Shown here in pieces: positions 3,553-60,677 of a stretch of DNA of 64,000 nt. Position 1 is the stretch's first letter. Each line of letters opens with the position of its first letter. Position numbers and translations under genes: made by a program. The notes below the pieces were generated by a model. The model was not told the DNA's origin, did no database searches, and worked only from the letters and a program-made list of their open reading frames with translations. This DNA comes from an uncultured Acidobacteriota bacterium (GTDB lineage Bacteria; Acidobacteriota; Vicinamibacteria; Vicinamibacterales; UBA2999), in NCBI GenBank assembly GCA_963793705.1, contig CAWCBC010000026.1, positions 7,877 through 71,876 of the forward strand, in the 5' to 3' direction.

Positions 3553-3597
3553 TAACCACGAAGGCACGAAGAGATCCCCTTCGTGATCTTCGTGGTT
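3553..3597. repeat. CACGAAG tandem-unit palindrome, copy P1
   Basis: taaccacgaag-gcacgaag ... cttcgtg-atcttcgtggtt. Confidence 0.9.
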
Positions 3598-4647
3598 TCA
3601 CTTCCGCAACGTTCCAGTCAGGCCCTCACGCGAGCACTTGAACGGCTCGACCTTCAGGTCGGACGGGACGTATTCGTACGTGAGCGTCGCCAGCGGTTGC
3701 TGAAAGAATTCCGGGTCGACGTCGGTGATTTCCAGCACGAGGCGCTGGCGGGCCACATCGAGGCGCAGCCGTTCGACCGTCGTCAAGGCGGAGGAATGCA
3801 GCAGTCCCCGCGTCGGCTGACCGGGCCGCTCGACATACTGATTCAGCACGCCGCTGGAGTAATTCGCCGTCTCGATGACCAGCGTGTCGCCATCGAAATG
3901 GCCGATCGAATGGCCCAGCGAGCTGCGCCGCCCGTTCTTCGGATGATCCGTCGCGTCGATGGCGATTTTGCGCCGCACGTCCATCCACTCGTGATGCAGC
4001 GCAACGTTTCGTCCGTCGCGGATGATCTCGAGCGGGGTGCCCGGCGCGGCCCACACGCGGCGGATCGCAACCGGATCGCAGCGGAACGTCGGGTCGTCTC
4101 GAAACGGATCGTAGGCGTCGACCGCCCGCTGCCCGGCCGGCGTCAGCAACGACATCGCTGAGGGACCGTTCGTGGTTCGGTTCAGCGACGGGGTCAGCAG
4201 CCAGCGGCCAAGGATGTCCTTTCGCGGCGGCAGGGACGCCGTCGTGCGTCCGGCCTGGGCCGGGCCATTTACGCTCAACGTGCGGCCGTCAGGAAATTCG
4301 ACGGTGTCGAAGAAGCACATGTACGGATCGTGCCGAGACACCGGACCGGTCACCCGAATCTGTGTGCCGGCCTTCAACATCGAGGGCGTGATCCCGTTGC
4401 GCTGCAATTGCGTGACGCCGTGCGACTCGCAGACGTATTCGCGCGTCCGTCCGTTCTCGTCGACGGCGGTCAGGTGAACGTAGGTGTGGGGATTTCGTGA
4501 CTCGAATTCCTTGACGATGCCCGAGATGGAGACCCGCTTGTTCGAATCGAAGTGCGGGGCGAAGCTGTGATGAGCGCCAGGACGCGCGCCACCGAGCAGC
4601 ACACCCATCCACACTGCCATCGCTGACGCAGTCATTCGAACGCGCAT
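3598..4647 (-). CDS. DUF6152-family secreted protein
   Basis: Signal peptide then AHHSFAPHFD, NPH; second half DPTFRC, GHSIGHFDGDTLVIET. Confidence 0.8.
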   Translation of the reverse strand: MRVRMTASAMAVWMGVLLGGARPGAHHSFAPHFDSNKRVSISGIVKEFESRNPHTYVHLTAVDENGRTREYVCESHGVTQLQRNGITPSMLKAGTQIRVTGPVSRHDPYMCFFDTVEFPDGRTLSVNGPAQAGRTTASLPPRKDILGRWLLTPSLNRTTNGPSAMSLLTPAGQRAVDAYDPFRDDPTFRCDPVAIRRVWAAPGTPLEIIRDGRNVALHHEWMDVRRKIAIDATDHPKNGRRSSLGHSIGHFDGDTLVIETANYSSGVLNQYVERPGQPTRGLLHSSALTTVERLRLDVARQRLVLEITDVDPEFFQQPLATLTYEYVPSDLKVEPFKCSREGLTGTLRK

Positions 4648-4661
4648 GGCCTCTCCTAGGA

Positions 4662-4712
4662 AACCACGAAGTCCACGAAGGAATCTTCGAATCCTTCGCG
4701 TGCTTCGTGGTT
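4662..4712. repeat. CACGAAG palindrome, copy P2
   Basis: aaccacgaag-tccacgaag ... cttcgcg-tgcttcgtggtt. Confidence 0.9.
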
Positions 4713-4813
4713 CAAGATTCTCCTCCAGTTTTCAACGGGATTGACGATGGTCGAACATTGCCCTCGAGGTAGGCATGTCGGGGGCCAACTCGCTACACTG
4801 TCTGCGCCCCCGC

Positions 4814-7283
4814 ATGAATCTCATTCCTCGACGGGTCGTTTTCGGCGCGGCCGGTCTGTGGGCCTGCGCCGCGGTCGGCGTTCAGGAGGCCGCTTCGCCG
4901 CCGCAGGCACCGCCCGCACGCGCGACGACTGCGACTGCGCTCACGGAAACGATCCGCCAGTACTGCGCCGGGTGTCACAACGAGCGCTCCGGATCGGCGG
5001 CCACGGCCACCGGTGTCGTGCTCGATCGAGCGGATGTGGCGCGCGCCGCCGAGCACACCGAGATGTGGGAGAAGGTCGTCCGGCGGCTGCGCACCGGCAG
5101 CATGCCTCCTCCCGGCATGCCGCGGCCCGACGCCGGCCGCGTACCGGAGCCTGATCGACCATCTCGAAGGCACGCTCGATCGTGCGGCGGCGGCGCGGCC
5201 GAACCCCGGCCGCCCGGCGGTTCACCGCCTGAACCGCAGCGAGTACGCGCACGCCATCCGCGATCTGCTGGCGCTCGACGTCGACACCGCCGCGATGCTG
5301 CCGCCCGACGACTCGGCCGACGGCTTCGACAACAACGCCGCGCTGCTCGGCGTCTCACCGGCGCTCCTCGAGCGATACCTGTCGGCGGCGGCCCGCATCA
5401 GCGAGCTGGCGGTGGCCAGCCCGGCGATCGTGCCGGGTTCGGAGACGTATCGCATCCGCGGCGACGCGTCGCAGAGCGAACAGAACGACGCGCTGTCGCC
5501 GGGCACGCGCGGAGGATTGCTCGCCACGCACACGTTCCCGCTCGACGGCGAGTATCTGATCAGGGTCCGGCTGCTGCAGACGAATCTGGGCTCAATCCGT
5601 GGCCTGGAGTACCAGCACCAGCTCGAGGTGACGCTCGACGGAGCGCGCGTCCTGCTCGCACCGGTCGGCGGACCCGACGACTACGTGCGGTCCTCGGTCA
5701 ACGCCACTGATGTCGTCAACTCGCTCGAGACGCGGCTGCAGGTTCGGGTCAAGGCGCGCGCCGGGCAGCGGGCAGTCGGCGCCGCGTTCCTGCGCCGGCC
5801 GCCGGTCTACGGCGGATCGCGCCTGCAGCCGTTCCTGCGCACGACGCTGATCGCCACCGATCACCTCGGCCTTCCCCACGTCGAGAGCATGACGGTCACC
5901 GGACCGTTCAACGCCGCGCCCGCCGGAGACACGCCGAGCCGGCAGCGGGTGTTTATTTGTCGTCCCCGGAACGGCACCCCTAAAGGGGCGCCCTACGGAT
6001 CCAACGCGGCCCGGCCGGTGAGCACGCTCGAAGAACAGGCGTGTGCGAACACGATCGTCGGCACGCTCGCGCGGCGCGCCTATCGGCGCGACGTGACCGA
6101 CGCGGATCTCGCGGGACCGATGGCCTTCTACGAGCAGGGGCGCACAGAAGGCGGCTTCGAGCGAGGCATCGAGCTGGCGCTCCGGGCGGTGCTGGTCAGC
6201 CCGAAGTTCGTGTTCCGCGTCGAGCGCGACCCACCGGGCCTCCGCGCCGGCGCGACGTATCGGATCAGCGACGCCGAGCTCGCCTCGCGTCTGTCGTTCT
6301 TCCTGTGGAGCAGCATCCCGGACGACGAGCTGCTGAACGTGGCGGCAAGCGGCAGGCTGCGCCAGCCCGCCGTGCTGGAGCGTCAGGTCCGGCGCATGCT
6401 CGCCGATCCGCGCGCCGACGCGCTGGTCGAGAACTTCGCCGGGCAGTGGCTGCACGTCCGCAACGTGCGCAGCTCGACGCCGGACAAGAACCTGTTTCCG
6501 AACTTCGACGACAACCTGCGGCAGGCCTTCGAGCGCGAGCTCGAGCTGTTCGTCGGCAGCATCATCCGGGAGGATCGCAGCGCCCTCGATCTGCTGACAG
6601 CCGATCACACGTTCGTCAACGAGCGGCTGGCGCGGCACTACGGGATCGGCCACGTCTACGGTCCGCGGTTCCGGCGCGTGACGCTGCAGGACGAGGCGAG
6701 GAAGGGACTGCTGGGCAAGGGCGGCATCCTGCTCGTGACGTCGCACGCCGATCGCACCTCGCCGGTGGTGCGCGGCAAGTGGATCCTGGAGAACCTGATT
6801 GGCACGCCGCCTCCCCCGCCGCCCGCCGAGGTGCCGGCGTTCCCGGAGGACGATCCGAGGGCGCCGCAGACCGTGCGCGCCAGAATGGAGCGCCATCGGG
6901 CCAGCCCCGCGTGCGCGGGCTGCCACAAGGTCATGGATCCGCTGGGGCTGGCCCTGGAGAACTTCGATGCCGTCGGCAGGTGGCGGACCGAGGACGCCGG
7001 TGTCACAATCGATGCCTCCGGTGAGCTTGGCAACGGCACGCGCGTCGACGGCGTCGTCTGCCCTGCGCACAGCGCTCCTCGGACAGCCGGAGGTTCTGGT
7101 CGGCACGATGACGGAAAAGCTGCTCACCTACGCGCTCGGCCGCAGCCTCGAGCACTACGACATGCCTGCCGTGCGAGGAATCGTCCGGACTGCGGCGCCC
7201 AGAACTACCGGTTCTCGGCGCTCGTGCTGGCGATCGCGCAGAGCACGCCGTTCCAGATGCGCAGCGTCGGAGGCGGGTCGTGA
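4814..7283 (+). CDS. DUF1592/DUF1588 (PSD/PSCyt) cytochrome c-containing protein (frameshifted)
   Basis: CAGCHN and CAGCHK heme motifs, HRLNRSEY, DGFDNNA, ELASRLSFFLWSSIPD, TSPVVRGKW; start uncertain (4775 or 4814). Confidence 0.9.
5973..5996. repeat. GTAG-type REP palindrome inside coding sequence
   Basis: ggcacccctaaaggggcgccctac nearly matches the reverse complement of the intergenic REP at 10916-10944. Confidence 0.75.
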
Positions 7284-8607: not shown

Positions 8608-8619
8608 GGACCGACGATC

Positions 8620-22843: not shown

Positions 22844-23690
22844 CGAGGGCCGGGCGAACGGTTCGACCGGCTGGTCGACATCATGCGGACGCTGCGATCG
22901 CCCGACGGGTGTCCGTGGGACCGCGAGCAGACCCAGGCCTCGCTGCGGCCGTTCGTCCTCGAGGAAACCTACGAGGTGCTCGAGGCGATCGAGAGCGGCA
23001 GTCCGGCACACCTGTGCGAGGAGCTCGGCGACTTCCTGTTCGAAGCCGTGTTCCTCGCCCAGATCAGCCGACGAGCGCGGCGAGTTCACAATCGCCGATG
23101 CCATCGACGGCGATCTGCGACAAGCTCGTTCGGCGTCACCCGCACGTCTTTGCGCGCGAAGACGGCGATCCGTCGCTCACTCCCGGTCAGGTCATCGAGA
23201 AGTGGGAGGCGCTCAAGGCGCGCGAGCGCGAAGCCGGCCTGTCCCGAGCGAGCGGGACGGCCGGCGAGTCAGGGACCAGCCGGCGAAGACCGACCGCTCA
23301 GCGGGGTGCCGAAGACGCTCCCCTCATTGCTGCGCGCGTACGAGGTGAGCGCGCGTGCAGCGGCCGTCGGGTTCGACTGGGCGAAGGCCGGCGACGTCCT
23401 CGACAAGATCGAGGAAGAGGTCGCCGAGCTGCGGCAGGAAGTCGAGTCCGGCGCGACCGGCGATCTCTCGCGCGCCGAGGAGGAGATGGGCGACCTCCTG
23501 TTCGCGATCGCCAACCTCTCGCGCAAGCTCGGCATCGAACCCGAGGCGGCCCTGCGCCGCGCGAACGACAAGTTCACGTCGCGCTTCGACGCCGTCGAGC
23601 AGGCCTTCGCCGCCCGCAATCAGTCGATGAGTGATGCCACGCTGGAGGAGATGGAAGCGGAGTGGCAGAGAGTCAAAGGCTTCTTCGTAG
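22840..23690 (+). CDS. mazG: Nucleoside triphosphate pyrophosphohydrolase (frameshifted; stop approximate)
   Basis: GCPWDREQT, EETYE, EELGD, RRHPHVF, GFDW, EEEMGDLLF. Confidence 0.93.
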
Positions 23691-23714
23691 CAGCGTTCAC
23701 TGATCTTGACTACG

Positions 23715-23820
23715 AACCACGAAGGCACACGAAGGTCACGAAGAGAAACATTGATCTAAAGGTCTTTCTTCGCGCTCTTCGTGCTCTTCGAGGTCCACCG
23801 ACTTCGTGTGCTTCGTGGTT
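23715..23820. repeat. CACGAAG palindrome, copy P3
   Basis: aaccacgaag-gcacacgaag-gtcacgaag ... cttcgcg-ctcttcgtg ... cttcgtggtt. Confidence 0.9.
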
Positions 23821-23837
23821 TAAGCGATCGTGCGACA

Positions 23838-24942
23838 ATGCCGCGCATGTCATACGCTCGAGGCGTCCTTCTCACCGCGCTGGCCGCGCTGACGTTCATC
23901 ACACTGCTCATCACGTCGCCGTCGCTCGGTGCACAGTCGGTGCACAGGCTGGCGCACGGGGCGGCGCACAGGCGGGAGCACAGGCCCCACCGGCACAGCC
24001 CACGCGCACCGTGCAGGACGGCGTCTTCAGCGACGCGCAGGCTACGCGCGGTCAGGCGCTCTACGCGCAGCGCTGCGCCGGCTGCCATGGCCCTGCGCTG
24101 GCGGGCGCGTCAGCGCCGGCGCTGACCGGCGATCCGTTCACGAACAAGTTCCGGATGGAGCCGCTCTCGGCGCTCTTCATCCAGATTCGCTACGCGATGC
24201 CGCCAGTGCCAGTGGCTCCAACGCCGGCGGCTGCAGCACCGCGGGCCCGGCGCCGGCCGGGGGGGGTGACGTCGCAAGTGCCGCCTGCCAGCCCCAGCTG
24301 ACGAACGACCAGGCTGCGGATCTGGTTGCGCACATTCTCAAGAGCAACGGCTTCCCTGCCGGCAAAACCGACTTCGCGTCGGCCGATGCGGTCAACAGCC
24401 AGATCGCGTGGCCCGCCGGTCGCGGCGTCGGGGCAGGCAGCGCGCCGGCGTCATCCTGGTATGCGCCCACGGGCAATCTCGCCCAGTTGATGCGCGGCGT
24501 CTTCTTCCACAACTCGAATCTGATCTTCTCAATCCAGGAAATGGAAGCGAAAGACCTGCCGCCGAAGCCGCCGGACTCACGACCAGACGGGCTGACGACG
24601 TTCGATTGGGGTCTGATGATTTACACGGGCTGGAGGGCGGTCGAACAGTCCGCCACCGCGCTCGCCGATGCCTCGTCTCTGATGATGCTGCCGGGGCTTC
24701 GCTGCGAAAACGGGCGGGCCGCTCCGGTCACCGAGCCGGACTGGATCAGGTTCACCGATCGGATGGTCTCGGTGGCCAGGCGGGCGTATCGGCTGGCGCA
24801 GACCAAGAACAAGGAAGCCCTCTCGGAATACACCCTGGATCTTTCCAATGCCTGCAACGCGTGCCATCTGACGTATCGCGACGTCGGCGGCCGCGGCCGC
24901 GGCGGTGCAGGGAACACCGCCGGACGCTGCATGCATCGGTGA
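23838..24942 (+). CDS. Diheme cytochrome c (class I N-domain plus c'-like C-domain), copy A (frameshifted)
   Basis: DGVFSDAQATRG, CAGCHG, distal Met in YAMP, CNACH. Confidence 0.85.
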
Positions 24943-24970
24943 TCGCGTCGCGGCAGTCTTCACCGGTCCT

Positions 24971-25093
24971 TAACCGCGAAGACCACGAAGGACGAACCAG
25001 TCAACGGCAAGGACGCGAAGATCCTTTGTAAAAGGAATTCTTCTTCGTGTTCTTCGCTGTGCTTCGGTGCCGGCTTCGTGTTCTTCGTGGTTA
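24971..25093. repeat. CACGAAG palindrome, copy P4
   Basis: taaccgcgaag-accacgaag ... cttcgtg-ttcttcgtggtta. Confidence 0.9.
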
Positions 25094-25107
25094 AGCGTCG
25101 TGCGACA

Positions 25108-26094
25108 ATGCCGCGCATGTATGCGATCCGTCGTCATCGCGGTGTTGGCCGCAGCCGCAGTCGTCTTCCTCGTCTCCACATCGATCTCGATCGAGGCGCA
25201 GGCCGCCAACGAACCGTACAAGACGGCGTCTACAGCGACGCGCAAGCGACTCGCGGCCAGGCGCTCTACGGGCAGCGCTGCGCCGGCTGCCACGGCCCGG
25301 CGTTGGCGGGCGCCCAGGCGCCGCCGCTTGCGGGCAGCGCGTTCACCTTCAAGTGGCGCAAGGAACCGCTGTCGGCCCTCTTCATCAAGATCCGGTACAC
25401 GATGCCGCCCAACCCGGCACCGGATGCGACTCCGCGGCTGACGCCCGAACAGGGCGCCGATCTCGTCGCGCACGTCCTGAAAACCAATGGCTTCCCCGCC
25501 GGCAAGACCGACTTCGCCGCGTCGGATGCGACCACCAGCCGCATCGGCTGGCCCCCCGCACCTGCGTCAGGGGAAGAACCGCCCGTCGTCGCGGCCAGGT
25601 ATCCGCCAACGGGCACGCTCAACCAGTTGATGCGCGGCGTGTTCTTCCCGAACTCGAATCTGCTCTTCACGGTGCAGACGCGCGACCCGGCGGCACCGGT
25701 CCCGCCACCAGACCCGGCGGCGAAGGGCGCCGGGTTCTCGGTGTTCGAATGGGGTCAGGGGATTTACACCGGCTGGCCGGTCATCGAAAACGCCGCCGCG
25801 GCCCTCGCCGATGCATCGCCGTGGATGCTCTCACCGGGATTGCGTTGCGAGAACGGCCGACTCGCTCCGGTCACCGAGCCCGACTGGATCAGGTTTACGG
25901 AGCAGATGGTCTCGGTGGCCAAACGGGGCTACCGCCTGGCGCAAACGAAGAATCAGGAGGCGGTCTCGGAATGGACCGGCGATCTGTCCGACGCCTGCGC
26001 CGCGTGCCACGGGACGTATCGCGATGTCGGCGGCCGCGGGCGCGGAGCGAACCCGCTCGGCGGTAACAACTCCGCGCGCTGCACGCACCGGTGA
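25108..26094 (+). CDS. Diheme cytochrome c, copy B (tandem paralog)
   Basis: CAGCHG, YTMP, CAACH; shares PGLRCENGR.APVTEPDWIRF with copy A. Confidence 0.85.
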   Translation: MPRMYAIRRHRGVGRSRSRLPRLHIDLDRGAGRQRTVQDGVYSDAQATRGQALYGQRCAGCHGPALAGAQAPPLAGSAFTFKWRKEPLSALFIKIRYTMPPNPAPDATPRLTPEQGADLVAHVLKTNGFPAGKTDFAASDATTSRIGWPPAPASGEEPPVVAARYPPTGTLNQLMRGVFFPNSNLLFTVQTRDPAAPVPPPDPAAKGAGFSVFEWGQGIYTGWPVIENAAAALADASPWMLSPGLRCENGRLAPVTEPDWIRFTEQMVSVAKRGYRLAQTKNQEAVSEWTGDLSDACAACHGTYRDVGGRGRGANPLGGNNSARCTHR

Positions 26095-26125
26095 CGTCTG
26101 CTTTCGTGGCGCTGTTCGCTGGCCT

Positions 26126-26652
26126 TAACCACGAAGTGCACGAAGATCGCGAAGCCCGCGAAGAGATTCGTTGTTAGTGGGATAGGACGATCCGCTGCAG
26201 TCCATCTTTCAGAAGTCGCACTCGAAAGTTGATCAGCAATCCACCTCTGAGGCCCGATCGTTCGCAGGTATGAGATCACCTGGGCGCGGTGGATCTCGTC
26301 AAGCTCGGTCACCGCTTTCAGCTCGACGACGATGAGCCCTTCGACGATCAGATCGACTCGTTGCCCGGGAATCGGGATACCGCGATAGTTGACGTCAATC
26401 GCGCGTTCGCGCTCGTAGGCCAAGTTCGCGGTTCTCGAGTTCGATGCACATGGCCTTTCGATAGATCGACTCGAGGAATCCCGGGCCCGAGCGCCCGATG
26501 AACGGCAATTGCGCACCCGATCGTCTGATGCATCACCCATTCATCTCGAGGTGACAAGGGAGTCGGGCGCACACCACGCATACGCGTGAACCGAAACGGG
26601 ATCTCTCGCGGTCCTTCGTGCCCTTCGCTGCTCTTCGTGTTCTTCGTGGTTA
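26126..26652. mobile_element. Putative autonomous CACGAAG-palindrome element (P5) carrying a GxxExxY gene
   Basis: Left arm 26126-26167 and right arm 26601-26652 are inverted, with perfect 11-bp termini TAACCACGAAG, and enclose only the GxxExxY ORF; mobility is inferred. Confidence 0.55.
26174..26581 (-). CDS. GxxExxY protein (PD-(D/E)XK nuclease-like; TIGR04256/PDDEXK_3 family), frameshifted in assembly
   Basis: IGCAIAVHRALGP-G-F-L-E-S-I-Y after removing one G in a G run; RVDLIVEGLIVVELKA; AQVISYLR; GLLINF. Confidence 0.92.
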
Positions 26653-29119
26653 TCTTTTTTCATCGGTGAACGTCCTCACGACTACATTCCTGCAGTCCGA
26701 TTCCAGCGTGATCTCCCCGTCCCGATCGGTGCGGTAGACCCGCGCACCAATCGATTCGAGGCGCTCGAGTACCTCGGGCGCCGGGTGTCCGAACGTATTG
26801 CCGCGACCGGCGCTGACGAGCGCGATCTGCGGCCGCCAGCTCTCGAGGAGCGCCACCGATGACGACGTGCGGCTGCCGTGATGACCGATTTTGAGGATCC
26901 GGGTGCGCGCGTGGGTCAGCTGCGGGGCGATCGCACGTTCCACGTCCCCGCTGATATCCCCGGTCAGCAGCAGCGCCACGTCACCGCAGGTCACTTCCAG
27001 CACGACCGAGTCGTCGTTGCGCACGCGCGGCCGCTCCCAGTCCGGCTCCGGCGGGTGAAGCACGCGGATCCGGGCACGCCCCCATTGAAACGACTCGCCG
27101 GCGCGACGGAGATCCACTCCGACGCCAGCCGAGACGGCTCGCTCGCGTAGTCGACGAGACGGTTCGTGTCGCGGAACGACCACGCCCTCCCACAGGCGGC
27201 GCGGACGGAAGGTGTCGAGCAGCACCAAGGCACCGCCGATGTGATCGGGATCGCCATGCGTCAGCAGCAAGGCATCCAGGCCGCTGACGCTCCGCGCCCA
27301 CAAGGCCGGTGCAACGACGCGTGCGCCGATGTCGAAGCTGCCGCTGCCGAACGGCGCGCCGCCGGCATCGACCTGGAGCCGCGACGTCCCTGACTCCAGC
27401 AGCATCGCTTCCCCCTGTCCGACATCGAACAGCGTCAGCCGGATGCCAGGGACCATGGGCGGTTGGCCGTGCGGATACGCACCGATGACCAGCAGCATCG
27501 CGACGGCAAGGACGGGGAGTCACGGCGAGGCGCAGGCGCAAACGCGACGCGAACAGCAGCCCGAGCAGCGAGCCGTAATAGACAACAAGCAGCGGGATAC
27601 CTGGCGGTGGCACGCGCCAGGACAACGCGGGCGCCGCATCGACAAACCGAGCGCTCTCCACGATGCCGGAGGCGGACACGGCCGCCAGCCATCCCGCCGG
27701 TCCGGCGACGATCGGCCAGGCATCGAACGCGGCGACGACAAGTCCACCGACCTGCGCCACGGCCATCAGCGGCACCGCCACGAGGTTCAGCAGCGGCCCG
27801 GCCAGCGTCACGCGTGAGAACGACGCCGCGGACACCGGCATCAGCGCAATCTCGACGGCGACCGAGGCCGCCGATCGAGGCGGCAATCCAGATGAAGGGA
27901 TGGTATCCGGCTGATCCGGCGTCGATACGGCGGTCGCAGCCGGACCATCAGCGTCCGCATCCAGCGCGCGCTCTCGAGCAGGGCCGCCGTCGCGCCAAAC
28001 GTGAGAAGGAATCCCGCGCTCCGCACATCGAGCGGCGCCACGCCCGCCATCACCGCCCGCAGCCAGCGTCGTTGCCTGCCATGGCGGCGTCCGGTGATCG
28101 AACAGCCTCGCCGCCAGATACACGACCGCCATCAACGTCGCCCGCCAGACCGACGGTCCGGTCGTCGCGATCTGCGCATAGACCAGGAGCACGCCGATGG
28201 TGATCACGGCGCGTACGCGGCCATGAACGCCGACCAGCGCGAGCAGCGCGAAGGCGAGTCCCGCGAGAACCGCGATGTTGCCGCCCGAAATCGCGATGAC
28301 GTGGTACGTCCCCGCACGCTGGAGTCGTTCGGACACGTCATCCGACAAGCCGGTCCTGTCGCCGATCAACACGGCGGTAACGATCGCCGCCGCCGTCTGG
28401 TCGTGCGGCGCGACCCACCTGCGGACGACGTGGCGGACGCGCGCGCGCACACCGGCGGCCCACTCCTGAAATGGCGAGCCCTTCGAGACGACGTCGACGA
28501 GCAGGCCGCTCTTGACGGATGCGAACAGCGCCGTGCCGCTGAGTGCCAGTTGACGCTCGAAGTCCGGAACACCATCGTCGAGATATCTCGCCGGGCGCCT
28601 GAAGGTGGCGCGCGTCTCGATCACTCGCCCGGCGCGCCACTCATCCGCTCGTGTCGCGGCCGCCTCGCCACTGACGGTCAACGCAACACCGCCTGCCACA
28701 CCGTATCGACGCCCGTCGATGTCGACGGCTGCCACGTTCACGCGGAGCGAGACGTAGTCCTCGCGGAGGGCCGCGTCCTCGAGCAGCTCCGCGCGAACGG
28801 GGATCGGCTCGTGGTCGTTCTCGGGACCAAGGCTCTCGATCTGAAAGCCGCCGACCCGAGCATCGAGAACGTCGCGCAGTGAGGGATGCAGGGCCTCTTC
28901 GCGGGCATCGGCGGCCAGAACCGCGGCCGCGAGGCTAAAGCCGGCACATGTGGCCAGCAACGCCATCCAGGACATGCGACGCCACCAGGCCACGGTCGCC
29001 GCGGCACAGAGGACCGGCAGTGCCGCCACAGCGAGCCAACCCGGGACGTCGATGGACGTTCCGGCAACGGCGCCGACGAGGACGGAGAGTGCTGGACACA
29101 GCGCCGGGGGCACGCCCAT
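26650..29119 (-). CDS. comEC: DNA internalization competence protein ComEC/Rec2 (frameshifted)
   Basis: GTYHVIAISGGN, SVWRA, FDVGQG, THGDPDHIGG, NDDSVV, HHGS, GNTFGHP. Confidence 0.93.
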
Positions 29120-29272
29120 CGACCTGCAAGTGGGCGATCCGGGCGCGCCTGGCTCCGGGTCAGCGACTTACGGCGACTGGTTGCAGAAAGTGATCACACC
29201 ATCGCCGGATCAGCGCGCAGTTTTTGATCCGCCAGGAGTAATATGGCCGGCCGGCGCTCACCAGGAGGATCT

Positions 29273-29885
29273 ATGTCCACGCGCACATGCGTGGATGGCG
29301 GCCATCGCCGTCGGGCTGATGTTGACGGGAGGTATGCGGGCCGAGCAGAGCGCTCAGGCCAACGCGCGGCCGATGGCGCTGGACGCGCTGGACTACATCG
29401 AGATCCAGCAGCTCGTCGCCAAGTACGCGCGAGCGATCGACACCTGCTCGAACAACGGCTACGACTATGCCGACCTGTTTACGCCAGACGGCTTCTTCGC
29501 TCCGTCGCAGAACGGTGTGGTCGGCACGCGATTCCAGGGTCGGGAAAAGCTGGCCGAGGTCTCGGGAGGCGGTGTCGCCGGTTGCAAGAATGTCGGGTGG
29601 ATCCGCCAGGGCGTACTGCACATCTATACGAACCACATCATCACGCCAACCGCCGATGGCGCGACCGGAACGGTTGACATGCTGATGATCGGGCTTGGCG
29701 GCGACCCCAACCGCATTCAGCACGACGGTTACTACGCCGACACCTACGCGAAGACGCCGCAAGGGTGGCGGTTCGCGTCGCGGATCCATCACGTGAAAAT
29801 CCAGCCACCTCGCGCGGCCGCTCCAGCGCGCCCCAGTTCGTGGACAATAAGCGGCGCGTTCACGTCCTGGACTCAGCAGGCGTAG
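29273..29885 (+). CDS. SnoaL-like/NTF2 family secreted protein (ends approximate)
   Basis: AGGAGG RBS; DYIEIQQLVAKYARAID, LFTPDG, GYYADTY..T..GWRF. Confidence 0.8.
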
Positions 29886-29959
29886 ATCAGACGACTGGCA
29901 CGACTTCTGCGGGTTGTGTTCTGGTCTGCGCTTCTGTGGACCAATCGGAGAGGTGCTCA

Positions 29960-30548: not shown

Positions 30549-30561
30549 CGCGTGGCGAGGA

Positions 30562-31413: not shown

Positions 31414-31419
31414 CGATCG

Positions 31420-32211: not shown

Positions 32212-32254
32212 TTCTTCTTCGTGGTCTTCGACTCTCTTCGTGCCTTCGTGCTTA
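32212..32254. repeat. Solo arm of CACGAAG palindrome (P6)
   Basis: cttcgtggt-cttcgact-ctcttcgtg-ccttcgtgctta; overlaps the receptor stop codon; no partner arm seen. Confidence 0.75.
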
Positions 32255-35200
32255 GAAGTCGAGCTGCGCGCTGAACTTGAACAGCCGTCCCGCTGTGACC
32301 GACACCGGCGAGAGATACGGATCTGCTCCCCATAGGTCTGCAGGAGACGTCCGTCGTATTGGAGTTCGTCAGGTTGTAGACGTCGAGGGCGAGCATCGTC
32401 CGCGTCCCGTTGTATCTGCAGGAATTTGCCGAACCGGAGATCGACGCCGTTCAGGCGATCGCCGTACTTCGTTCCCGGCTGGACGAGGTTGAGGAACTGG
32501 ATGGCCTGGCCGCTCGAGAACCCCCGTCCAAGGTTCGTCTGGAACGGGAGCGCCAGCACCTGCGCACCGAGGCTCTGGCCGGCAATGCTCGGGAAGTTGG
32601 CTCCGGCATAGGGCACGCTGCGGAACGTGCCGCTGACGAGCACGTCGATCCGCGGCACGGTGTAGCTCGCCAGACCCTTTCCAGTTCGTCTGCCATCCCG
32701 ACTCGCGATGGCAGAAAGCCTGCGGCCACTGGCCAAGCCCGCCGACAAAGGGCGAGTCCGGCTAAGAACGGCTGCGAGCCGCCCCACGGACGCGAAGATG
32801 TAGACCTCCGGGTGCGCCTGGACCATTCCGCAATCGTCCTCGACGCGGTTGCCTGTGCTGAAGCCGCCCTGGATGGTCACGTCCCGGAGGCGGGCGTGTG
32901 CCGTCATGTCGATGCCGTTGAAGGTGTTGTCGACGCCGCCAAGGTTGTCGGCGAACGTGCGGAAGTTGTCGAACTGGCCAAACTTTGCCGGTTTGATGTC
33001 CTGGAACGTCAGCGGGTATCCACCGCCGCCCGGCAGCTTCGGATCCGACGGCGACGTTGTAGACGAACGAATCAAAGTCCGCCGGCGTGAGCGCGCGGTT
33101 GACCGTGGCCAGCGTATTTCCCCAGGTGCGCCGGACGTAGGCCAGTTCCACGGACACGCGCGGAAAGACTTCCTGCACGACCGCGAGGTTCAGATCCCAG
33201 CTGTACTCCCGGGTGTTCCAGCCATCGGTGACCGCCGGATCCACCGTGAGCGGGTTGATCTGCTTGGCGAAGTTCGGATTCGCCATCGGGCCGCACTCAC
33301 CATTGGCGGCCGTGTTCAGCAGGTCACAGTTGGGGACGAAGTTGCCGGTTCTGGAATCGCCGGCTCCGAAGAGGCTGTCGTTCCATGGCCTTGTCGTCTG
33401 TGCGACGAAACGCCCGAGTCCTGCCGGACTGTAATTCGCCCACTCGTCCACGGTGTTCGTGGTCGTCACGTACCGGCCAAGGAACACCTTCGCCGCCGTC
33501 CTTCCGTTCCCGAACACGTCGTAGGCGGCGCCGAACCGCGGCATCAGGTCCTTCTGGCTCAGCGGACCGTCCTGCGCCGCGAAGACCAGAGGCGGTGGGA
33601 ACGAAAATGTTCGGCCCCATCTGCTGCTGCTCGAACGAGTCGCGCAGATACTCGAAGCGCAGGCCACCCTGCAGCGTGAGTCGGCCGAGCGTCCAGCGAT
33701 CCTGCGCGTACATCGCGAAGATCCCCTGGTGCTGGTGCTGGTCCGACGCGTGATCCGCGTACATCGTCAACTGGTAGGGAACACCGCTGTTGAAGTTGTA
33801 CTTGAGCTGCGAATCGTTGTAGAAGTTCTTCGGGAACGTCGAGTCGTTGGCGTGGTGGCGGACGCCGAATTTCGCCGAGTGCGTTCCGGTCACGTACGAC
33901 AGCGCGCCCTCATAGATGGTCGTAAACCCCGTGTGGCCGGACCAGAAGGCCGATCTGTAGTTGATGCCCGGGATGGCGCCGCCGTCGTCCTGCACCTGAA
34001 TCAACGTACTGTCGAACGAATTCTTCTGTTCGCTGCCCCACCAGAAGTACGGCCCCAACCCCACGTTGGCCTCGAGCAGCATGCGATTCGTCACCGGCGA
34101 TGACCAGCTGACCTTGCCGAGCATGCTCGGGTGGTTCTGTGTCTGGCTCTGCGCTTCAGGCGAGGCGATCAAGCCGGTGAACGACAGGCCGGATCGGGAG
34201 CCGCCCTCGACGCAGTGCTGGCAGTTGTACTGCACGTTCATCCAGCCATCGATCTTGTTGCGCGGCGACGCCTGCCAGGTCAGCCGGCCGGAATAGTTCT
34301 TCCACGTGCCATCGTCGATCGCCTGCTTCGTCGTCGGCTGCGTAGGTCCATTTCGTGGCATCGCCGGCGTTCGCGTTGGTGAACATGTTGATCTGCTGAC
34401 GGTTGCCCTGGTGGCGGAACGAGCCGAAGAACCACAGGCGATCGCGGCATGATCGGCCCGCCGAACGACGGGTTGACGTCCCAGAGCTTCTGCGAGCTCG
34501 ATTGGCGTCAGGCCGGTGTCCTTCTGCGCCTGGCTCAGGTTCTCGGCCTGGAACGAGCTGTTCGCGAAGTTCAAGAACATCTGCCCGCTGAATATGTTTC
34601 CACCCTGCCGGCTGATGACGTTCACCTGCGGCCCGCCGGTGACGGCCTCGCCAAGAGCGCCGCTCAGCGTGACGTTGATTTCCTCCGCGTTGCCCACCTC
34701 CGGCGTGTATCCCGACACGCCCATGCCCTGGTAGCCGGCGCTCTGTCCGTTCACCTGGACCTGCCCTTCGTTGCGGCGGCCACCGTGAATCTGGAACACG
34801 CTGAAGATCGGGCCAGACGACGAGCCGACGTCGTTGCCCTGCACGTTGATCGCGGGCACGAGCGCGGTGAAGCTGAAGTACTGTCGGCCGGACGGGATAT
34901 CGGCACCGTCTCGCCGCTGAACGTCTGCTCGGTTCGGGCGCTCGTGATATCCACCACCGGTGCTTCGCCGGTGACCGTGATCGCCTCGGTCACCGCGCCA
35001 ACCTTCAGATCCTGGTTCACGGTGGCGATGAACGTGCCGGTCAGCACGATCCCTTCACGCCTGACCGGGACAGAATCCGGAGATCGAAAACGTGACCGTA
35101 TAGGTGCCCGGCCTCAGGTCTTCAATCGCGTACTGGCCGACGCCGTTGGTCACGACCGAACGCGTTTTCTCGATCAGCGCCGGGCTGGACGCTTCGACGG

Positions 35201-35326
35201 TGACGCCGGGCAGCACGCCCCCGACGCGTCTCTCACGGTGCCGACAATCGAGCCCTGCGCGAAGGCGACTGTGGGTGCCAGGACGAGCCCGATGACGACG
35301 AGGAAGTTCTTTGCCAACCGATCCAT
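32252..35326 (-). CDS. Oar-like TonB-dependent receptor with carboxypeptidase-regulatory N-domain (many frameshifts)
   Basis: AQGSIVGTVRDASG, LPGVTVEASSPALIEK, QDRWT, PRFGAAYDVFG, C-terminal ..RLDF. Confidence 0.88.
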
Positions 35327-35519
35327 GGTCCTCCTCCGAAGTGAATAAACCCCGCACGAAACCAGCAACATCTGTGCCGTTTCCCGGTGTACCAGAAGCG
35401 TTGCTCGGCCAGAAATATATGTTTCGTTCGGATTGAGAGGTTTTCGATATCAGTCGACGCCGGATCTTCAGTGCAAACACGATGGGAACGCGGGTCGGGT
35501 GTGCTAGCCTCTCGACCGC

Positions 35520-36467
35520 ATGGAGCTACGTCATCTGCGGTACGTCGTCACGGTGGCCGATACGCTCCACTTCGGCCGCGCCGCCGAGCGGCTGCATCTG
35601 AGTCAGCCACCGCTCAGCCAGCAGATTCGGCAACTGGAGACGGAGCTCGGTGTGGCGCTGTTCCACCGCACGAAGCGCCATGTCGAACTGACCGACGCCG
35701 GCAGGATGTTCGTCGAGGAGGCGCGCGTCATCCTCGCGCATGCCGCGCATGCATCCAACCTGGCGCTGCGCGTGAACCAGGGCGAAGTCGGTCAGCTGTC
35801 CATCGGCGCGGCTGGGCCCGCCGACGCGCAGATCTTTGTCGAGATTCTCCGGGCGTTCGCGCGGCGTCATCCACAAGTCCGCACGGTCGTGCGGAACATG
35901 GGCTCCGCCGAACAGGCCCGCGCGCTCAGCGAAGGACGCCTGCACGTGGGATTCGTCGCGCTTCCGATCGACGAACCCGATCTCGCCACTGAAACGGTGC
36001 TCCGCCAGCCGATCGTCATCGCGTTGCCACGCGATCACCCGCTGGCCTCCCGGGCGCGCGTGCCGCTGCATGCCCTTGCCAACGAGCCGCACATCATGTT
36101 CGCCCGCCGCATGGGACCCCGCCTGTACGATGCGGTGCTGGCCGCGTGTCGCGAGGCGGGCTTCAACATGCAAATCGCCCACGAAGTGGACAATCTCCAC
36201 ACGGCCTGTGCGCTGGTTGATGCCGGCCTGGGCGTGTGCTTCGTGCCGGCCGGGGTTCAGGAAAAGCGATCGAACGGCATCGTCTTGCGGCCCGTGACGC
36301 CGGCCTTGCCGCACGTCGATTCCCAACTCGCGATCGCGTACAAGCCACACTCCTGCGAGCTGGTCTCCCTCTTCATCGAGGTGGTGCGGGAGGTCATGGC
36401 GTCGAAACGATCGCGATCGAGAGCCCCTCGACTCCGCTGGCCGGCCGGCCGAATGGCGTCGGCGTAG
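35520..36467 (+). CDS. LysR-family transcriptional regulator
   Basis: MELRHLRY...HFGRAAERLHLSQPPLSQQIRQLE; divergent from the TonB receptor. Confidence 0.96.
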   Translation: MELRHLRYVVTVADTLHFGRAAERLHLSQPPLSQQIRQLETELGVALFHRTKRHVELTDAGRMFVEEARVILAHAAHASNLALRVNQGEVGQLSIGAAGPADAQIFVEILRAFARRHPQVRTVVRNMGSAEQARALSEGRLHVGFVALPIDEPDLATETVLRQPIVIALPRDHPLASRARVPLHALANEPHIMFARRMGPRLYDAVLAACREAGFNMQIAHEVDNLHTACALVDAGLGVCFVPAGVQEKRSNGIVLRPVTPALPHVDSQLAIAYKPHSCELVSLFIEVVREVMASKRSRSRAPRLRWPAGRMASA

Positions 36468-36482
36468 GCGCCGCGATCGCGC

Positions 36483-36854
36483 TCAGGGCCGCACGCCCAC
36501 CAGCTGTCTCAATCTGGCGTTCGTGTCGTCGTCCATGTCGGCAAAGCGGACGGCAAAGCCAACTCCAGGCGTCGCGGAGAGCACGGTCCCATGAACGCTG
36601 AGTGGACCTTCGGGGACCGCCAGGCAGATTTCCCGGACATGGGTGCCCTGCGGCGGTACGGAGAAGCGGCTGTCGATATAGCAGCCGGTCGGGCTGATAC
36701 TGCTGATGCGGGTCTGTTCGTCTCCCCACGGACTGACCCAGTTGCACTCGATGTATCGTTCGATGCGCTGTCGCTTCGGACGTCGCCTCGGACGCCCGCC
36801 GCTCGGTGCATTTGGTACTCGATTCCACAGCGCGGCGAACCATCGCTGAGCCAT
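36483..36854 (-). CDS. PilZ domain protein
   Basis: RRPKR motif, SISPTGCYI (D/NxSxxG-like), GFAVRF. Confidence 0.7.
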   Translation of the reverse strand: MAQRWFAALWNRVPNAPSGGRPRRRPKRQRIERYIECNWVSPWGDEQTRISSISPTGCYIDSRFSVPPQGTHVREICLAVPEGPLSVHGTVLSATPGVGFAVRFADMDDDTNARLRQLVGVRP

Positions 36855-37002
36855 CGCCTTACTCCGTCAGATCACAGGGTCCGCGCGCTTCAGCGCAAGA
36901 ACGGCGCCAAGCGCGACAAGGCCAGTCTGCGTCCGCTTAAAGGCGTACGCCACCGCGGGCCGATCACAGTTGTGTGGGTGGAATGACGTCTGAAGGACTG
37001 GC

Positions 37003-40264
<3,262 letters not shown>

Positions 40265-40280
40265 CAGGCGTTGCTGGCGT

Positions 40281-40375
40281 TAACCACGAAGGACACGAAG
40301 GATCGAAGATCACGAAGAATGTTTTTCATCAAGATGAACTTCGTGTCCTTCCTGCGCTTCGTGCTCTTCGTGGTT
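40281..40375. repeat. CACGAAG palindrome, copy P7 (between carA and carB)
   Basis: taaccacgaag-gacacgaag-gatcgaag-atcacgaag ... cttcgtg-ctcttcgtggtt. Confidence 0.9.
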
Positions 40376-40380
40376 CAAAG

Positions 40381-41522
40381 TCACCGTTTCTCCATTGACT
40401 CGATGAACTGCCTGAACAGGTAGTCCGCGTCGTGCGGGCCGGGTGATGCCTCGGGATGGTACTGCACCGAGAAGATCGGCTTCGTCAGATGCCGGAATCC
40501 TTCGACCGTGTTGTCATTCAGGTTCATGTGCGTGACGGTCACGTCGGACGGCAGCGACTCCGCTTTCACCGCGAAGCCGTGATTCTGCGAGGTGATCTCG
40601 ACCTTCCCGGACTGCAGATCCTTGACCGGATGATTCGCGCCGCGGTGCCCGAACTTCAGTTTGAAGGTCTCGCCGCCGACGGCGAGCCCGAGGATCTGGT
40701 GGCCCAGGCAGATCCCGAACATCGGCACGTCCGTCGTGCGTCAGCTCGCGCACGTTGTCGATCGCGTACGGCAGCGCCGCGGGATCGCCGGGACCGTTGC
40801 TCAGGAAGATGCCGTCGGGCTCGATCGTCGTCAGCTCCGACGCCGGCGCCGACGCTGGAAACACGTGCACGTCGCAGCCATACGCATCGAGCCGGCGCAG
40901 GATGTTGAATTTCACGCCGAAGTCGTAGGCCGCCACGCGAAGCCGCCGCGTGGCCCGGGCTTCGGTTGGAATCCCGAACATTTCGTGGTCCGCGTCGCCG
41001 ACGCGCCCGGCGAACTGGCGCCATTCGAACTGCCGTGTCGCACGTCACGCCGCGCACAAGGTCCGCCCCTTCCATCTTCGGGATGGCGCGCGCCTTCTCG
41101 ATCAGCTCCGCCGGATCGACCTGCCCGGTGGCGATCACTCCGCGCATGACACCGGCGTTGCGCAGCCCGCGTGTCAGCGCCCGCGTATCGATGTCGGCGA
41201 TGGCGACGATGTGATGACGAATGAGGTAGTCGCGCAGGGTGCCGTCGGCGCGCCAGTTGCTCGCCAGCGGCGACGCTTCCCGCATGACGAAGCCGGCCAC
41301 GCGCGGCGCCTGCGACTCCGCGTCGCCCGCCGCCACGCCGTAGTTGCCAATCTGCGGCGCCGTCATCGTCACGATCTGGCCGGCGTAGGAGGGATCGGTC
41401 AGCACTTCCTGATAGCCGGTCATGCTCGTGTTGAACACGACTTCGCCCGACGTCTCGCCAGTGGCTCCGGCCGCGACGCCTTGATACCAGGTGCCATCTT
41501 CGAGCGCCAGGACAGCGTTCAT
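40381..41522 (-). CDS. carA: Carbamoyl-phosphate synthase small subunit (frameshifted)
   Basis: [38 protein letters not shown]. Confidence 0.97.
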
Positions 41523-41531
41523 GCGGCGCTC

Positions 41532-41618
41532 CAATGCAAATGCAAATGCAGAATGCCGAGATTCACGCAGGTTTCTCGACTTCTCGAGTTTGCATTTTGA
41601 ATTTCATTGCATTCATTG
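41532..41618. repeat. AT-rich tandem/inverted (AATGCA)n element
   Basis: caatgcaaatgcaaatgcagaatgc ... tgcattttgaatttcattgcattcattg. Confidence 0.8.
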
Positions 41619-58575: not shown

Positions 58576-58695
58576 TAACCACGAAGGACGCGAAGCCTCT
58601 ACATCCTGGTACAAGGTCACGAAGAAACAATTTCAAAGGAAATCGATCTTCGTGTTCTTGGGCCATGACTGCGACTCTTCGTGGTCTTCGTGGTT
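58576..58695. repeat. CACGAAG palindrome, copy P8
   Basis: taaccacgaag-gacgcgaag ... gtcacgaag ... cttcgtg ... cttcgtggt-cttcgtggtt. Confidence 0.9.
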
Positions 58696-58738
58696 TTATT
58701 TCGCCGCCTTGTCCACGATTCGTCATGTTCGTGCTCCA

Positions 58739-60589
58739 CTAGCGCGACAGCGCGGGAATGACTTCCGCGTGGTTGTACTTGCGCGCGAGTTCGAGAGCGG
58801 TGAGGCCGTCCTTGTTGCGGGCGTCAGCCTTGGCGCCGGACTTCAGCAGCAGCTCGATCATCGCCGGATCGCCGAAGTCGCTCGAAGCCGCCCACAGCAG
58901 CGGCGTCATGCCGAGCTTGTCGACGACGTTGACGTTGGCACCGCGGGCGATCAGCGTCCTGGCCATCGCCACTTCGTTGTTCAGCGCTGACCGGCCGAGC
59001 ATCGTGATGCCGTTGCCGTCGGCAAACTCGATCGGCGTGCCCAGCTCGAACAGCGTGCGGGCGACGTCCTCGTCGCCGAACTTGAACGCGCCCAGCAGCG
59101 GCGTCGTCCGCGACGTGCCGATCAGCGTCATCGGCTCGTCGATCTTCGCGCCAGCGTCGCGCAGCCGCTTCAGCACGGCGGCGTTGCCCGAGTAGGCGGC
59201 AAGGAAGAACGGATTGGCGTTGAATACCGGCGCGCCGCCCTCTGCCGGCGCCCCAACCTCGGCGCCGCGATCGAGCAGCAGGTTGATCGCTGCGGCCGAG
59301 TCCTGATACTGCGCGGCCACCATCAGCGCGCTGAACCGGTTTCGCGCCCGCGCGTTGACGCTGGCGCCGCGATCGAGCAGCAGCTTCATCTTTTCCGCGT
59401 CAGGCGCCGCGGCCATCAGCGCCGTCGTGCCGCCGGATTTCGTGGCCGCGTTGTGGATCCAGCCCCTGGTCGAGCAGCCGCCGCACGTCGGCGACCGAGC
59501 CAAACACGCATCGTCTCGACCCACGGCTCGACGCCCGACGGGATCGTCTCCGGCAGCGGCGGTGGCGCGACCGGCCGAGTCGGCGGCAGCGCATAGGCCA
59601 AGGCCATCACCGCCCAGCTCGCCGCGGTCATCGAAATGAACTGATCGTGCCCTTCCGGATAGCCCGCGTCGAAGTACGGAGGGCTGAGCGGCGCCGGAGG
59701 ATTCAACCGCGACTTGAGGCGCCACGAACCGTCGGCGGCCTGCGCCTTCAACAGATACTCGACGCCGCGGCGCCATCCCGTATCGATGTCGCCAACGCCG
59801 CCCTCGCGCAACGCCACCAGCGCCTGCGCCGTCGCGTAGACATCACTGTCGCGTCCGGCGAACGCGCCCCATCCGCCGTCCGGCCGCTGCGCCGCTTTCA
59901 GCTCACGCGCCAGGCGCTGCAGCGTGTTGCGATCGGCACCAGCCCACTTCAGCCCGATGATTCGATACGCGTGCTCCTCGGTGGCTCGGGCCTGCTGTTT
60001 CTCGAGAAACGTCCGCGCGCGGGCGACCGCTGCCGCCGCCGCGGCCTTCTGGCTCGAATGGTGGTACAGCTGCACGGCGCGCAGGCCGAGCGCCGTCATC
60101 GTGAAACGGCTGTACGACGAGGGCGGACGCTGATGGAAGCCGTCCCAGTCGCCGTCGCGGTTCTGCCGCGAGATCAGGAGACGCGCATACACCGCGGCGC
60201 CGAGGTTCGGCTCCACGCCCGCCGCATGCGCCGCCACCATGCGATAGGCGTCGTCCATCGCCGGCTCGATGACGTACGGAATACTGAATCGCGCGATCGA
60301 TGTCGGCAAAGGTGAAGGCCTTGACCGCATCGGCATGCGCGATCGCCTCGTCCACCGGGATGCCGCGTTCACGCGCCGCGCGGTACGCCAGGGCCGGCTG
60401 GTATTGGTGGTGGCACGAGCCGCACACCTGCTTGTTGGCGGTGTACCACGTGGACTGGGCCTTCTGAATGGCGGCAACCGCCCGCGTCGCCGCCTCGCGC
60501 ACGCGCGGCGCATCGTCTTCGCTCTGCGCGCTGGCAAGAGCCGGGATCGCGAGGAGGGCCGTCAGCATCCAGAACAATTGCTTCTTCAT
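58739..60589 (-). CDS. Secreted prenyltransferase/squalene-cyclase-repeat plus ankyrin protein with CxxCHH (frameshifted)
   Basis: CGSCHHQ; QNRDGDW, QRPDGGW, QAADGSW (QW motifs); C-terminal ankyrin repeats. Confidence 0.85.
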
Positions 60590-60604
60590 GGAGGAAGCAT
60601 TTTA

Positions 60605-60677
60605 TAACCACGAAGGCACGAAGGGGATCGAAGAACACGAAGTAAGATCTTCAGGACTCTTCGTGTCCTTCGTGGTT
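60605..60677. repeat. CACGAAG palindrome, copy P9
   Basis: taaccacgaag-gcacgaag-gggatcgaag-aacacgaag ... cttcgtg-tccttcgtggtt. Confidence 0.9.

Follow-up and report, generated by a model that had tools for sequence, protein, structure and literature searches.

A stretch of 64,000 nucleotides (hereafter, the window; positions 7,877 to 71,876 of contig CAWCBC010000026.1, assembly GCA_963793705.1) from an uncultured Acidobacteriota bacterium of the GTDB lineage UBA2999 holds nine copies of a palindromic element built from short tandem units with the core CACGAAG. These nine sites are probably copies, devoid of an open reading frame (ORF), of a cassette that encodes a GxxExxY nuclease, and the preliminary description of the window, made from the sequence alone, had overlooked that the copy at 26126-26652 carries this nuclease gene. 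By analogy with two known pairings of hairpin repeats and enzymes, repetitive extragenic palindromes (REPs) with REP-associated tyrosine transposases (RAYTs) and NTS repeats with Ssn nucleases, the palindromes look like selfish repeat DNA tied to an enzyme.

Eight complete copies and one half copy had been described previously, and each of the nine sites holds such an array. The reported termini, AACC(A/G)CGAAG...CTTCG(T/C)GGTT, are present at all eight complete sites, where the left arm consists of CACGAAG-type units and the right arm of CTTCGTG-type units. The sites and the nuclease frame are as follows, with the identities of flanking ORFs taken from Pfam annotation:

3553..3597: el1, CACGAAG hairpin of 2+2 units, abutting the stop (3598-3600) of a DUF6152 gene on the minus strand (3598-4647); minimum free energy (MFE) -26.3, z -6.9
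4662..4712: el2, CACGAAG hairpin, 15 nt upstream of the DUF6152 gene start and facing a divergent PSD-domain gene on the plus strand (5013-7283)
23715..23820: el3, CACGAAG hairpin, 80 nt past a MazG-like gene (end 23634) and ahead of an ORF on the plus strand (23929-24942)
24971..25093: el4, long CACGAAG hairpin between the ORF at 23929-24942 and a cytochrome c gene (25078-26094); MFE -66.6, z -9.0
26126..26652: el5, full cassette, with a left CACGAAG arm, a remnant of the GxxExxY nuclease ORF and a right arm
26118..26540, minus strand: GxxExxY (TIGR04256/PDDEXK_3) reading frame within el5; PF13366 56.7 bits (cut-off 22), TIGR04256 55.2 bits (cut-off 35)
32212..32254: single arm of CTTCGTG-type units only, directly past the TAA (32255-32257, minus strand) of an outer-membrane-receptor-like ORF ending in LDF
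40281..40375: el7, canonical 95-nt hairpin in the carA-carB operon (both genes on the minus strand), 5 nt past the carA stop (40381) and 16 nt before the carB start (40264)
58576..58695: el8, CACGAAG hairpin between the stop of an ankyrin gene (58739) and the start of an aminotransferase gene (58550), both on the minus strand
60605..60677: el9, CACGAAG hairpin in a divergent spacer, 8 nt ahead of an epimerase start (60686)

When the stretch upstream of the single arm at 32212-32254 was read, no partner arm was seen. The density of the family is far beyond chance, with 52 occurrences of CACGAAG in the window against 11.3 ± 3.4 (maximum 22) in 100 dinucleotide-preserving shuffles. Across the 4.23-Mb assembly (29 contigs, 66% G+C) there are 174 termini, 105 arm motifs and 44 copies with strict termini, the last dispersed over 20 contigs, and the contig of the window is the densest of all (2.21 termini per 10 kb). 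Rfam at gathering thresholds returned no family match anywhere in the window.

Each arm is a row of two to five tandem units of 8-9 nt that share the core CACGAAG. A canonical copy spans 85-95 nt, in which the arm AACCACGAAG-NN-CACGAAG-RR-ATCGAAG-NN-CACGAAG is followed by a loop of 15-25 nt and the mirror arm; over all copies the loop measures 4-25 nt and is AT-rich without being conserved in sequence. The 36-nt arm, including its odd third unit ATCGAAG, is common to copies with differing loops. Unit cores are 97% identical between arms, while the spacers between units showed Watson-Crick pairing at 11 of 54 positions, compared with 15.2 ± 2.7 when partners were shuffled (27 hairpins with 2-nt first spacers), and spacer covariation among the paralogs of this genome gave no signal. 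The element is an imperfect hairpin, therefore, with conserved cores and spacers that do not pair above chance. All seven window copies that were folded form strong hairpins (z -6.1 to -9.0), with none of 200 shuffles as good, and in el4 the inner units have diverged yet still pair. The earlier claim that the variable bases do not pair thus holds for the spacers but not as a description of the elements overall, which are strongly folded. The conserved register that had been described is borne out, and sequence-specific recognition suits it better than a plain stem does.

In the same 27 hairpins, G faces T (a wobble, read on the contig plus strand) 12 times and the mirror case does not occur; the bias spans 9 contigs, both signs of GC skew and both gene orientations, and is weaker over all arms.

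The nuclease gene in el5 lies beside comEC and has counterparts at the same place across the genus. Among the 36 genomes compared, this one included, 11 congeners have a comEC-adjacent GxxExxY ortholog (at least 55% identity), making 12 genomes in total. Nine of the orthologous cassettes between the MazG-like gene and comEC were read, the one in the window among them, and eight contain intact ORFs of 130-157 amino acids (G048, G008, G021, G024, G018, G006, G023 and G013); seven of these eight have CACGAAG-type arms and G013 has CACGACG-type arms. The ortholog is also at the site in G014, G053 and G009, with CACGAAG/CGCGAAG units beside it in G014 and G053, although the 3′ side in G014 runs off the contig. 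Elsewhere, the site holds a single terminal unit (G046), a spacer without CACGAAG units (G010), a CACGACG hairpin (G051) or, judged from match coordinates alone, a short spacer (G020). At all loci read the comEC stop overlaps the GGTT end of the element. On these sequence comparisons, the comEC-side cassette has been passed down at one place while the genus diversified.

The two arms of the orthologous comEC-site cassettes co-evolve. The cognate arm duplex reaches -37.1 kcal/mol against -30.2 kcal/mol for non-cognate arms, and the cognate arm is the best partner in five of seven rows. The preliminary description had held that the CGAAG register is conserved rather than a perfect hairpin; with arms that co-evolve, pairing counts too.

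Across 18 sequences of the nuclease, G30, G32, E35, Y38, D74 and K86 never vary and the conservation of E84 is at least 90%, such that the catalytic D74 and E84-x-K86 of the PD-(D/E)XK fold and the G..E..Y motif are all present. The ortholog at L181:1114-1509 scores 124.7 bits against TIGR04256. A structure model (predicted local distance difference test, 93.4) has weak Foldseek matches to Cas4, lambda exonuclease and RecB-type nucleases (best E 5.5e-3); a sequence search of the PDB with the GxxExxY protein found no match, and PADLOC returned only weak Cas4 matches for the nuclease. In this assembly the window frame is broken, with the family match divided over two frames and 4 TGA codons on read-through. 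The break may be an assembly error, because comEC (26650-29119) and carA (40381-41534) are each also split over two overlapping frames in an assembly that is 54.5% complete. The split genes suggest indel errors, and pseudogene calls, including that of the window GxxExxY frame, are unsafe.

In several congeners the comEC stop overlaps an (A/G)TGA start, from which a frame reads through the arm and on into the nuclease (e.g., L181:1066-1512); in this locus and its orthologs the frame renders the arm as MNHEG. The overlap suggests translational coupling to ComEC, or it may be a mere by-product of an arm frame without stops. Intact GxxExxY genes bracketed by CACGAAG arms also occur in Thiohalophilus (L162), in G042 (L158) and in a Pyrinomonadaceae metagenome-assembled genome (MAG; L157), and further GxxExxY genes are bracketed by other units, CGCGGAG, CACAGAT, CACAGAG and CACATAG among them.

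Within the genus, the hairpins come and go at fixed positions, are exchanged for hairpins of other units and differ widely in number. The carA-carB spacer had been named beforehand as one place to look for presence and absence. Four of the 28 loci with both flanks hold a CACGAAG hairpin (this genome, G008, G002 and G021), and seven hold hairpins of other units (CGCGGAG in G009, and CACGGAG, CACAGAG, AATGCAA, GGCAGC, GAATGCA and CTGCAGG). A few loci are incomplete or ambiguous, and in about 13 there is a bare spacer of 4-26 nt. Because carA-carB varies in this manner, the lack of presence/absence variation that the preliminary description had named as grounds against itself was not found. Arm-motif counts range from 0 to 105 over the 36 genomes, with this genome the highest and six congeners, two of them 100% complete, at zero. 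The presence of the comEC-site ortholog is linked to copy number: the 12 genomes with it have 10-105 arm motifs (median 27.5) and the 24 without it have 0-66 (median 3), a contrast in which kinship was not factored. Further, counts are reciprocal between families, with 105 CACGAAG and 1 CACGGAG motifs in this genome, 0 and 92 in G052, and 1 and 96 in G015, and the arms of the GxxExxY gene in G052 are of the CACGGAG type.

The window also shows hairpins at the exact junctions of gene gain and loss between congeners, as synteny breaks precisely at the elements (3598-4647, 23929-26094 and 58576-58695). In G008 and G004 the DUF6152 gene, flanked here by el1 and el2, is found on other contigs. Most congeners lack at this site the two genes that el3, el4 and el5 delimit, and at the place of el8 both G008 and G002 have a 1.4-kb dehydrogenase-like gene. 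Some copies, el5 and el9, are old and conserved in position across species; el9 is complete here, whereas G002 has its left arm alone and G008 and G048 retain remnants. In four DNA runs, contigs of a related strain (mostly 88-95% alike) break or diverge at the elements, and no clean empty-site junction was found; the joints in these runs have short sides (21-35 nt) and probably derive from other copies.

The elements favor gene ends. Because two gene callers of our own under-call (coding fractions of 0.69 and 0.76) and the assembly has split genes, contexts were assigned by local coding-potential tests, by which the 44 strict copies comprise 8 convergent, 14 tandem, 2 divergent and 20 unclassified cases and, genome-wide, 42 flanks toward gene 3′ ends and 24 toward 5′ ends. 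The coincidence of stop codons with element ends that had been reported is real. The right end of el5 overlaps the comEC TAA (26650-26652, minus strand) by 2 nt, and genome-wide 14 of 41 gene-facing flanks have a stop codon no more than 2 nt from the element end, nine of them as T|AACC overlaps. TAA accounts for 11 of these 14 stops, compared with 325 of 1986 genes genome-wide (16%, from a crude gene caller of our own). The proposed preference for a TA/TAA target was not established, as a T precedes AACC in only 21 of 44 copies; the palindrome therefore often extends to TTAACC...GGTTAA. Nor did tabulating the flanking bases reveal a target-site duplication, as among 44 copies the flanks were identical over 2 nt in two, over 3 nt in one and over 4 and 5 nt in none. 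An intrinsic terminator, with a GC-rich stem and a T run confined to 3′ ends, was considered and ruled out, in agreement with the preliminary description: none of the five elements in 23000-41000 was called terminator-like, el7 sits inside carA-carB, and el2 and el9 face gene starts.

Beyond the genus, the arm motif occurs in 28 of 401 sampled genomes of the phylum (at most 47 per genome), for which a reversed-pattern control gave 1 match in all. A cross-phylum scan of one genome per species matched at least 124 stretches, including in Chloroflexota, Gamma- and Betaproteobacteria, Cyanobacteria, Bacteroidales, Planctomycetes and Verrucomicrobia, and among the matches listed the same termini, core and odd third unit recur in more than 10 phyla. 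Eleven of the 12 cross-phylum loci that were read have a like architecture; the twelfth (L012, Kalamiella) lies in coding sequence and matched by chance. One Bacteroidales MAG contig (L051; JAISWE010000169.1, 12827-14236) carries eight hairpin copies head to tail with an 85-bp period, whose arms, CACAAAG against CTTCGTG, pair fully only as G:U on one strand. Contigs filed as viral can also be rich in the arm motif (IMGVR_UViG_3300032046_000115, at least 9 matches; 3300003358_000002, at least 8), but no conclusion is drawn on phage carriage because IMG/VR holds prophage and host DNA.

It should be noted that CACGAAG is one of many families of tandem-unit hairpins in this genome, which the preliminary description had overlooked: tandem arrays with units of 7-11 nt form 137 inverted pairs, and their unit types are many. 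The other GxxExxY genes of the genome are likewise bracketed by inverted tandem-unit arrays, as are each of six loci for the four-helix-bundle protein of 23S ribosomal RNA (rRNA) intervening sequences (IVS; PF05635). The units that bracket the PF05635 genes are 7-9 nt long (CAGGAGA, ATGAGTT, GGTGCGAG, CCTGGGT, AATGCAA and AAGGCC), and several are also found as gene-less hairpins (about 17 pairs for AATGCAA). CACGAAG hairpins are, in addition, nested in hairpins of the CAACTCC/TTGGGAG family, and at six loci a CACGAAG arm is joined at a recurring junction, CCGCAC-NN-CTTCGTG x3 (-GGTT), in composites that link it to an inner hairpin module and to ACGGAG-type arms of another GxxExxY cassette type. 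Targeting of the hairpins by IS110 elements was considered and rejected, since the GGGGTGCGGCCGTTCGATT sequence beside some arms is the inner module of the ACGGAG-type GxxExxY cassettes and is no insertion-sequence end; an IS110-family transposase piece on contig C8 is a fragment within a composite element, and its ends are not CACGAAG arms. Features of this genome (G000) that lie outside the window are:

C23:23150-23619, C10:231384-231695, C13:249338-249990, C25:26652-27284, C23:49867-50408 and C27:80374-81505: PF05635 loci bracketed by inverted tandem arrays
C8:29038-30019, C22:4651-4895, C11:37020-37290 and C9:226030-226290: examples of composite elements
C6:13124-14338 (L001 776-1993): RAYT-like Y1 transposase gene, the only one in the genome (single PF01797 match)

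In the mechanism that would account for these patterns, the nuclease would recognize its own arms, either as the unit array or as the hairpin, with single-stranded or extruded DNA as the likeliest form. Where intergenic sites prone to hairpins break, repair would draw on other copies, so that hairpins could be copied into, swapped at and lost from such sites without a target duplication, and genes would at times be gained or lost at the hairpin junctions. The logic would be that of the REP/REPIN-RAYT and NTS-Ssn pairs, with a different enzyme and with arms made of tandem units.

Several observations weigh against reading the hairpins as copies of a nuclease cassette. Only 2 of the 124 cross-phylum loci have a GxxExxY gene beside the arm (400-nt flanks, among the matches listed), and none of 119 IMG/VR loci has a GxxExxY or IVS-protein gene there (flanks of 80). 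Many long pairs of like arrays, 400-1300 nt apart, enclose ordinary host genes and not a nuclease; as most do so, long array pairs were not counted as cassettes. The nuclease frame of the window is itself broken, possibly by assembly error, and the contrast between medians of 27.5 and 3 carries no phylogenetic correction. Individual congeners also depart from the pattern: G010, which is 92% complete, carries 34 arm motifs but gave no GxxExxY match at E 1e-10, G002 carries 66 without a comEC-site ortholog, though its site falls at a contig end, and G013 has 43 CACGAAG motifs although the arms of its comEC-site cassette are CACGACG. No recent insertion with clean boundaries was caught among the loci compared, and el5 and el9 are old and stable in position across species, such that any movement of the hairpins would be slow or rare. 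Lastly, the action of the nuclease on the arms, the form of its substrate and the route of copying are steps that we infer.

The main rival to a nuclease-linked repeat is a role at the level of RNA, in which each hairpin would be a cis element under selection at its own site, as an mRNA stabilizer, an RNase III processing site or a device that uncouples cistrons, and in which the nuclease cassette would be one transcript on a like stem, as in an ORF-bearing 23S rRNA IVS. We hold this explanation to be unlikely. A search for RNA runs that contain the DNA of 23300-33200 found none. The folds are strong, the elements lie in transcribed spacers, including within carA-carB, and the arms co-evolve around an ORF of 400 nt; at carA-carB, moreover, a hairpin is retained in several congeners with an altered sequence. 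RNA of the sense strand folds more stably than that of the antisense strand in 18 of 24 informative cases, with 1 tie (mean difference -1.46 kcal/mol; two-sided binomial about 0.02), but a bias of this kind could equally stem from transcription-linked C-to-T mutation. Selection per site is hard to reconcile with the roughly 13 of 28 congeners and relatives that have no hairpin at carA-carB, with copy numbers of 0 to 105 and families that replace one another in one genus, or with el2 and el9, which lie upstream of gene starts in divergent spacers, and conserved cores with unpaired spacers go beyond the needs of a stem alone. That last feature, together with the regular 8-9-nt period, would suit arrays of binding sites for a DNA-binding regulator or a nucleoid protein, immobile and independent of the nuclease, in which the core is conserved (0.97) and the spacers are free; the preliminary description had leaned toward protein-binding arrays of this kind. 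Such arrays show no tie to promoters here, as only 2 of 24 classified contexts are divergent and 42 flanks face 3′ ends against 24 facing 5′ ends. Presence/absence and unit swapping at orthologous sites, and the patchy occurrence of a like core in many phyla, also count against them. No candidate regulator co-varies, the nuclease being the only gene found enclosed by CACGAAG arms here, and we regard this explanation as improbable.

It is very improbable that the hairpins arise in place, with slippage producing tandem units, template switching the inverted arm and concerted evolution their likeness, so that nothing moves and the nuclease is incidental. The many families with unrelated units among the 137 inverted pairs and the variation in unit number between orthologs would fit such an origin, and heptamer arrays are described as slippage products (PMC4679880). 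It cannot, however, account for shared termini, core and odd third unit in more than 10 phyla, for 105 near-identical arms here against none in six congeners, or for the recurring composite junctions at six loci. Conventional miniature transposons, either miniature inverted-repeat transposable elements (MITEs) mobilized by a DDE transposase or REPINs that depend on the RAYT of this genome for movement, deserve hardly any credence and are already largely refuted. Terminal inverted symmetry, dispersal, intergenic location and variable copy number are what such elements would display, and CACGAAG arms do lie about 0.5 kb to either side of the single Y1/RAYT-like gene. That gene, however, is directly flanked by its own GTAG-type REPs (GTAGTGTCCGCC..GGCGGAC), a different family, with the CACGAAG arms further out, and a ccmE-like ORF also lies between CACGAAG arms at this locus; the REPIN variant was rejected on these flanks. 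As to MITEs, no copy contains a transposase, no flanks are identical at 4 nt or more in any of the 44 copies, and the long copies carry GxxExxY or unrelated host genes with no transposase having these ends.

A broader extension of the nuclease-cassette reading is that GxxExxY proteins and tandem-unit hairpins constitute a widespread and undescribed enzyme-repeat system, which we consider quite unlikely. A nuclease of 130 amino acids would read a repeated 'word' (CACGAAG, CACGGAG, CACAGAG and others) in hairpin or single-stranded DNA, and an altered word would yield a new specificity, which would explain the differing families among congeners. The copy fused to the end of comEC in this genus would target transforming DNA as it enters and mark or restrict any that bears the word, as Ssn does with NTS, and the hairpins would be places of gene gain and loss.

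A literature search, with subscription journals outside its coverage, found neither the CACGAAG family nor a link between GxxExxY and repeats described. The finding ties a repeat of many phyla to an uncharacterized nuclease family with an invariant catalytic triad, and the word of the repeat differs between close relatives. Should the nuclease read the word, this would be a family of small site-specific nucleases with a specificity visible in the flanking DNA, and it would also account for the 'hypothetical proteins' (NHEGHEG..., FVFFV...), presumably in the thousands, into which gene callers translate such arms. Enzyme-linked hairpin repeats such as REP-RAYT and NTS-Ssn shape genome structure and have yielded useful enzymes.

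Among known systems, REP/REPIN-RAYT combines dispersed, gene-less hairpin repeats with a RAYT gene that is flanked by its own repeat. The elements of this study are alike in their dispersed short hairpins without genes, in an enzyme gene flanked by the family's own repeat and inherited at a fixed locus, in copy numbers that differ widely among relatives, in the lack of a target duplication and in an intergenic preference near gene ends. They differ in that the enzyme is a PD-(D/E)XK GxxExxY nuclease and not a Y1 HUH transposase, and in that the arms are tandem 8-9-nt units and not a single 20-40-nt palindrome with a GTAG head; the true RAYT of this genome has separate GTAG REPs. In integrons, cassettes are collected in one array next to the intI integrase and their attC sites have RYYYAAC...GTTRRRY ends and extrahelical bases. 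The succession of el3, gene, el4, gene and el5 resembles a small integron cassette array, and some ends read CCTTAAC...GTTAAGC, yet the copies span 20 contigs.

Tandem 7-9-nt units, often in facing pairs, intergenic and in many copies, with one unit turning up in unrelated phyla, are also known from published repeat arrays. Those of Geobacter metallireducens were read as 'global regulator binding sites' (PMC2700814), and heptamer arrays occur in Xanthomonas/Nostoc and in Beggiatoaceae (PMC4692102, PMC4679880). In the accessible portions of these papers no enclosed gene is linked to the arrays, for which regulator binding, G-quadruplexes or translational control are proposed, and neither the CACGAAG unit nor the GxxExxY link is among their content. 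The ORF-bearing 23S rRNA IVS of Coxiella and Leptospira (PMC4990558) share a long stem around a small ORF, and PF05635 genes here are also bracketed by inverted arrays; the copies described here lie outside rRNA, however, and their ORF encodes a nuclease where that of the IVS encodes a four-helix-bundle protein.

The NTS/SRM hairpin repeats pair with Ssn (GIY-YIG) nucleases, which are specific to single strands and modulate transformation (PMC11893778). The two systems are alike in a small, single-domain nuclease gene that has its own hairpin repeat on either side, with many dispersed copies, in repeat variants that match enzyme variants, and in a distribution that is broad yet patchy across phyla. 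They differ in nuclease superfamily and in the tandem units of the arms, and GxxExxY is a biochemically uncharacterized family. Because the enzyme is not GIY-YIG, the occurrence here of a gene flanked by its own repeat, in carriers with many copies, matches the NTS-Ssn pair as an analogy only. Ssn modulates transformation, and a copy here stands at the competence gene comEC, a link to transformation through adjacency only.

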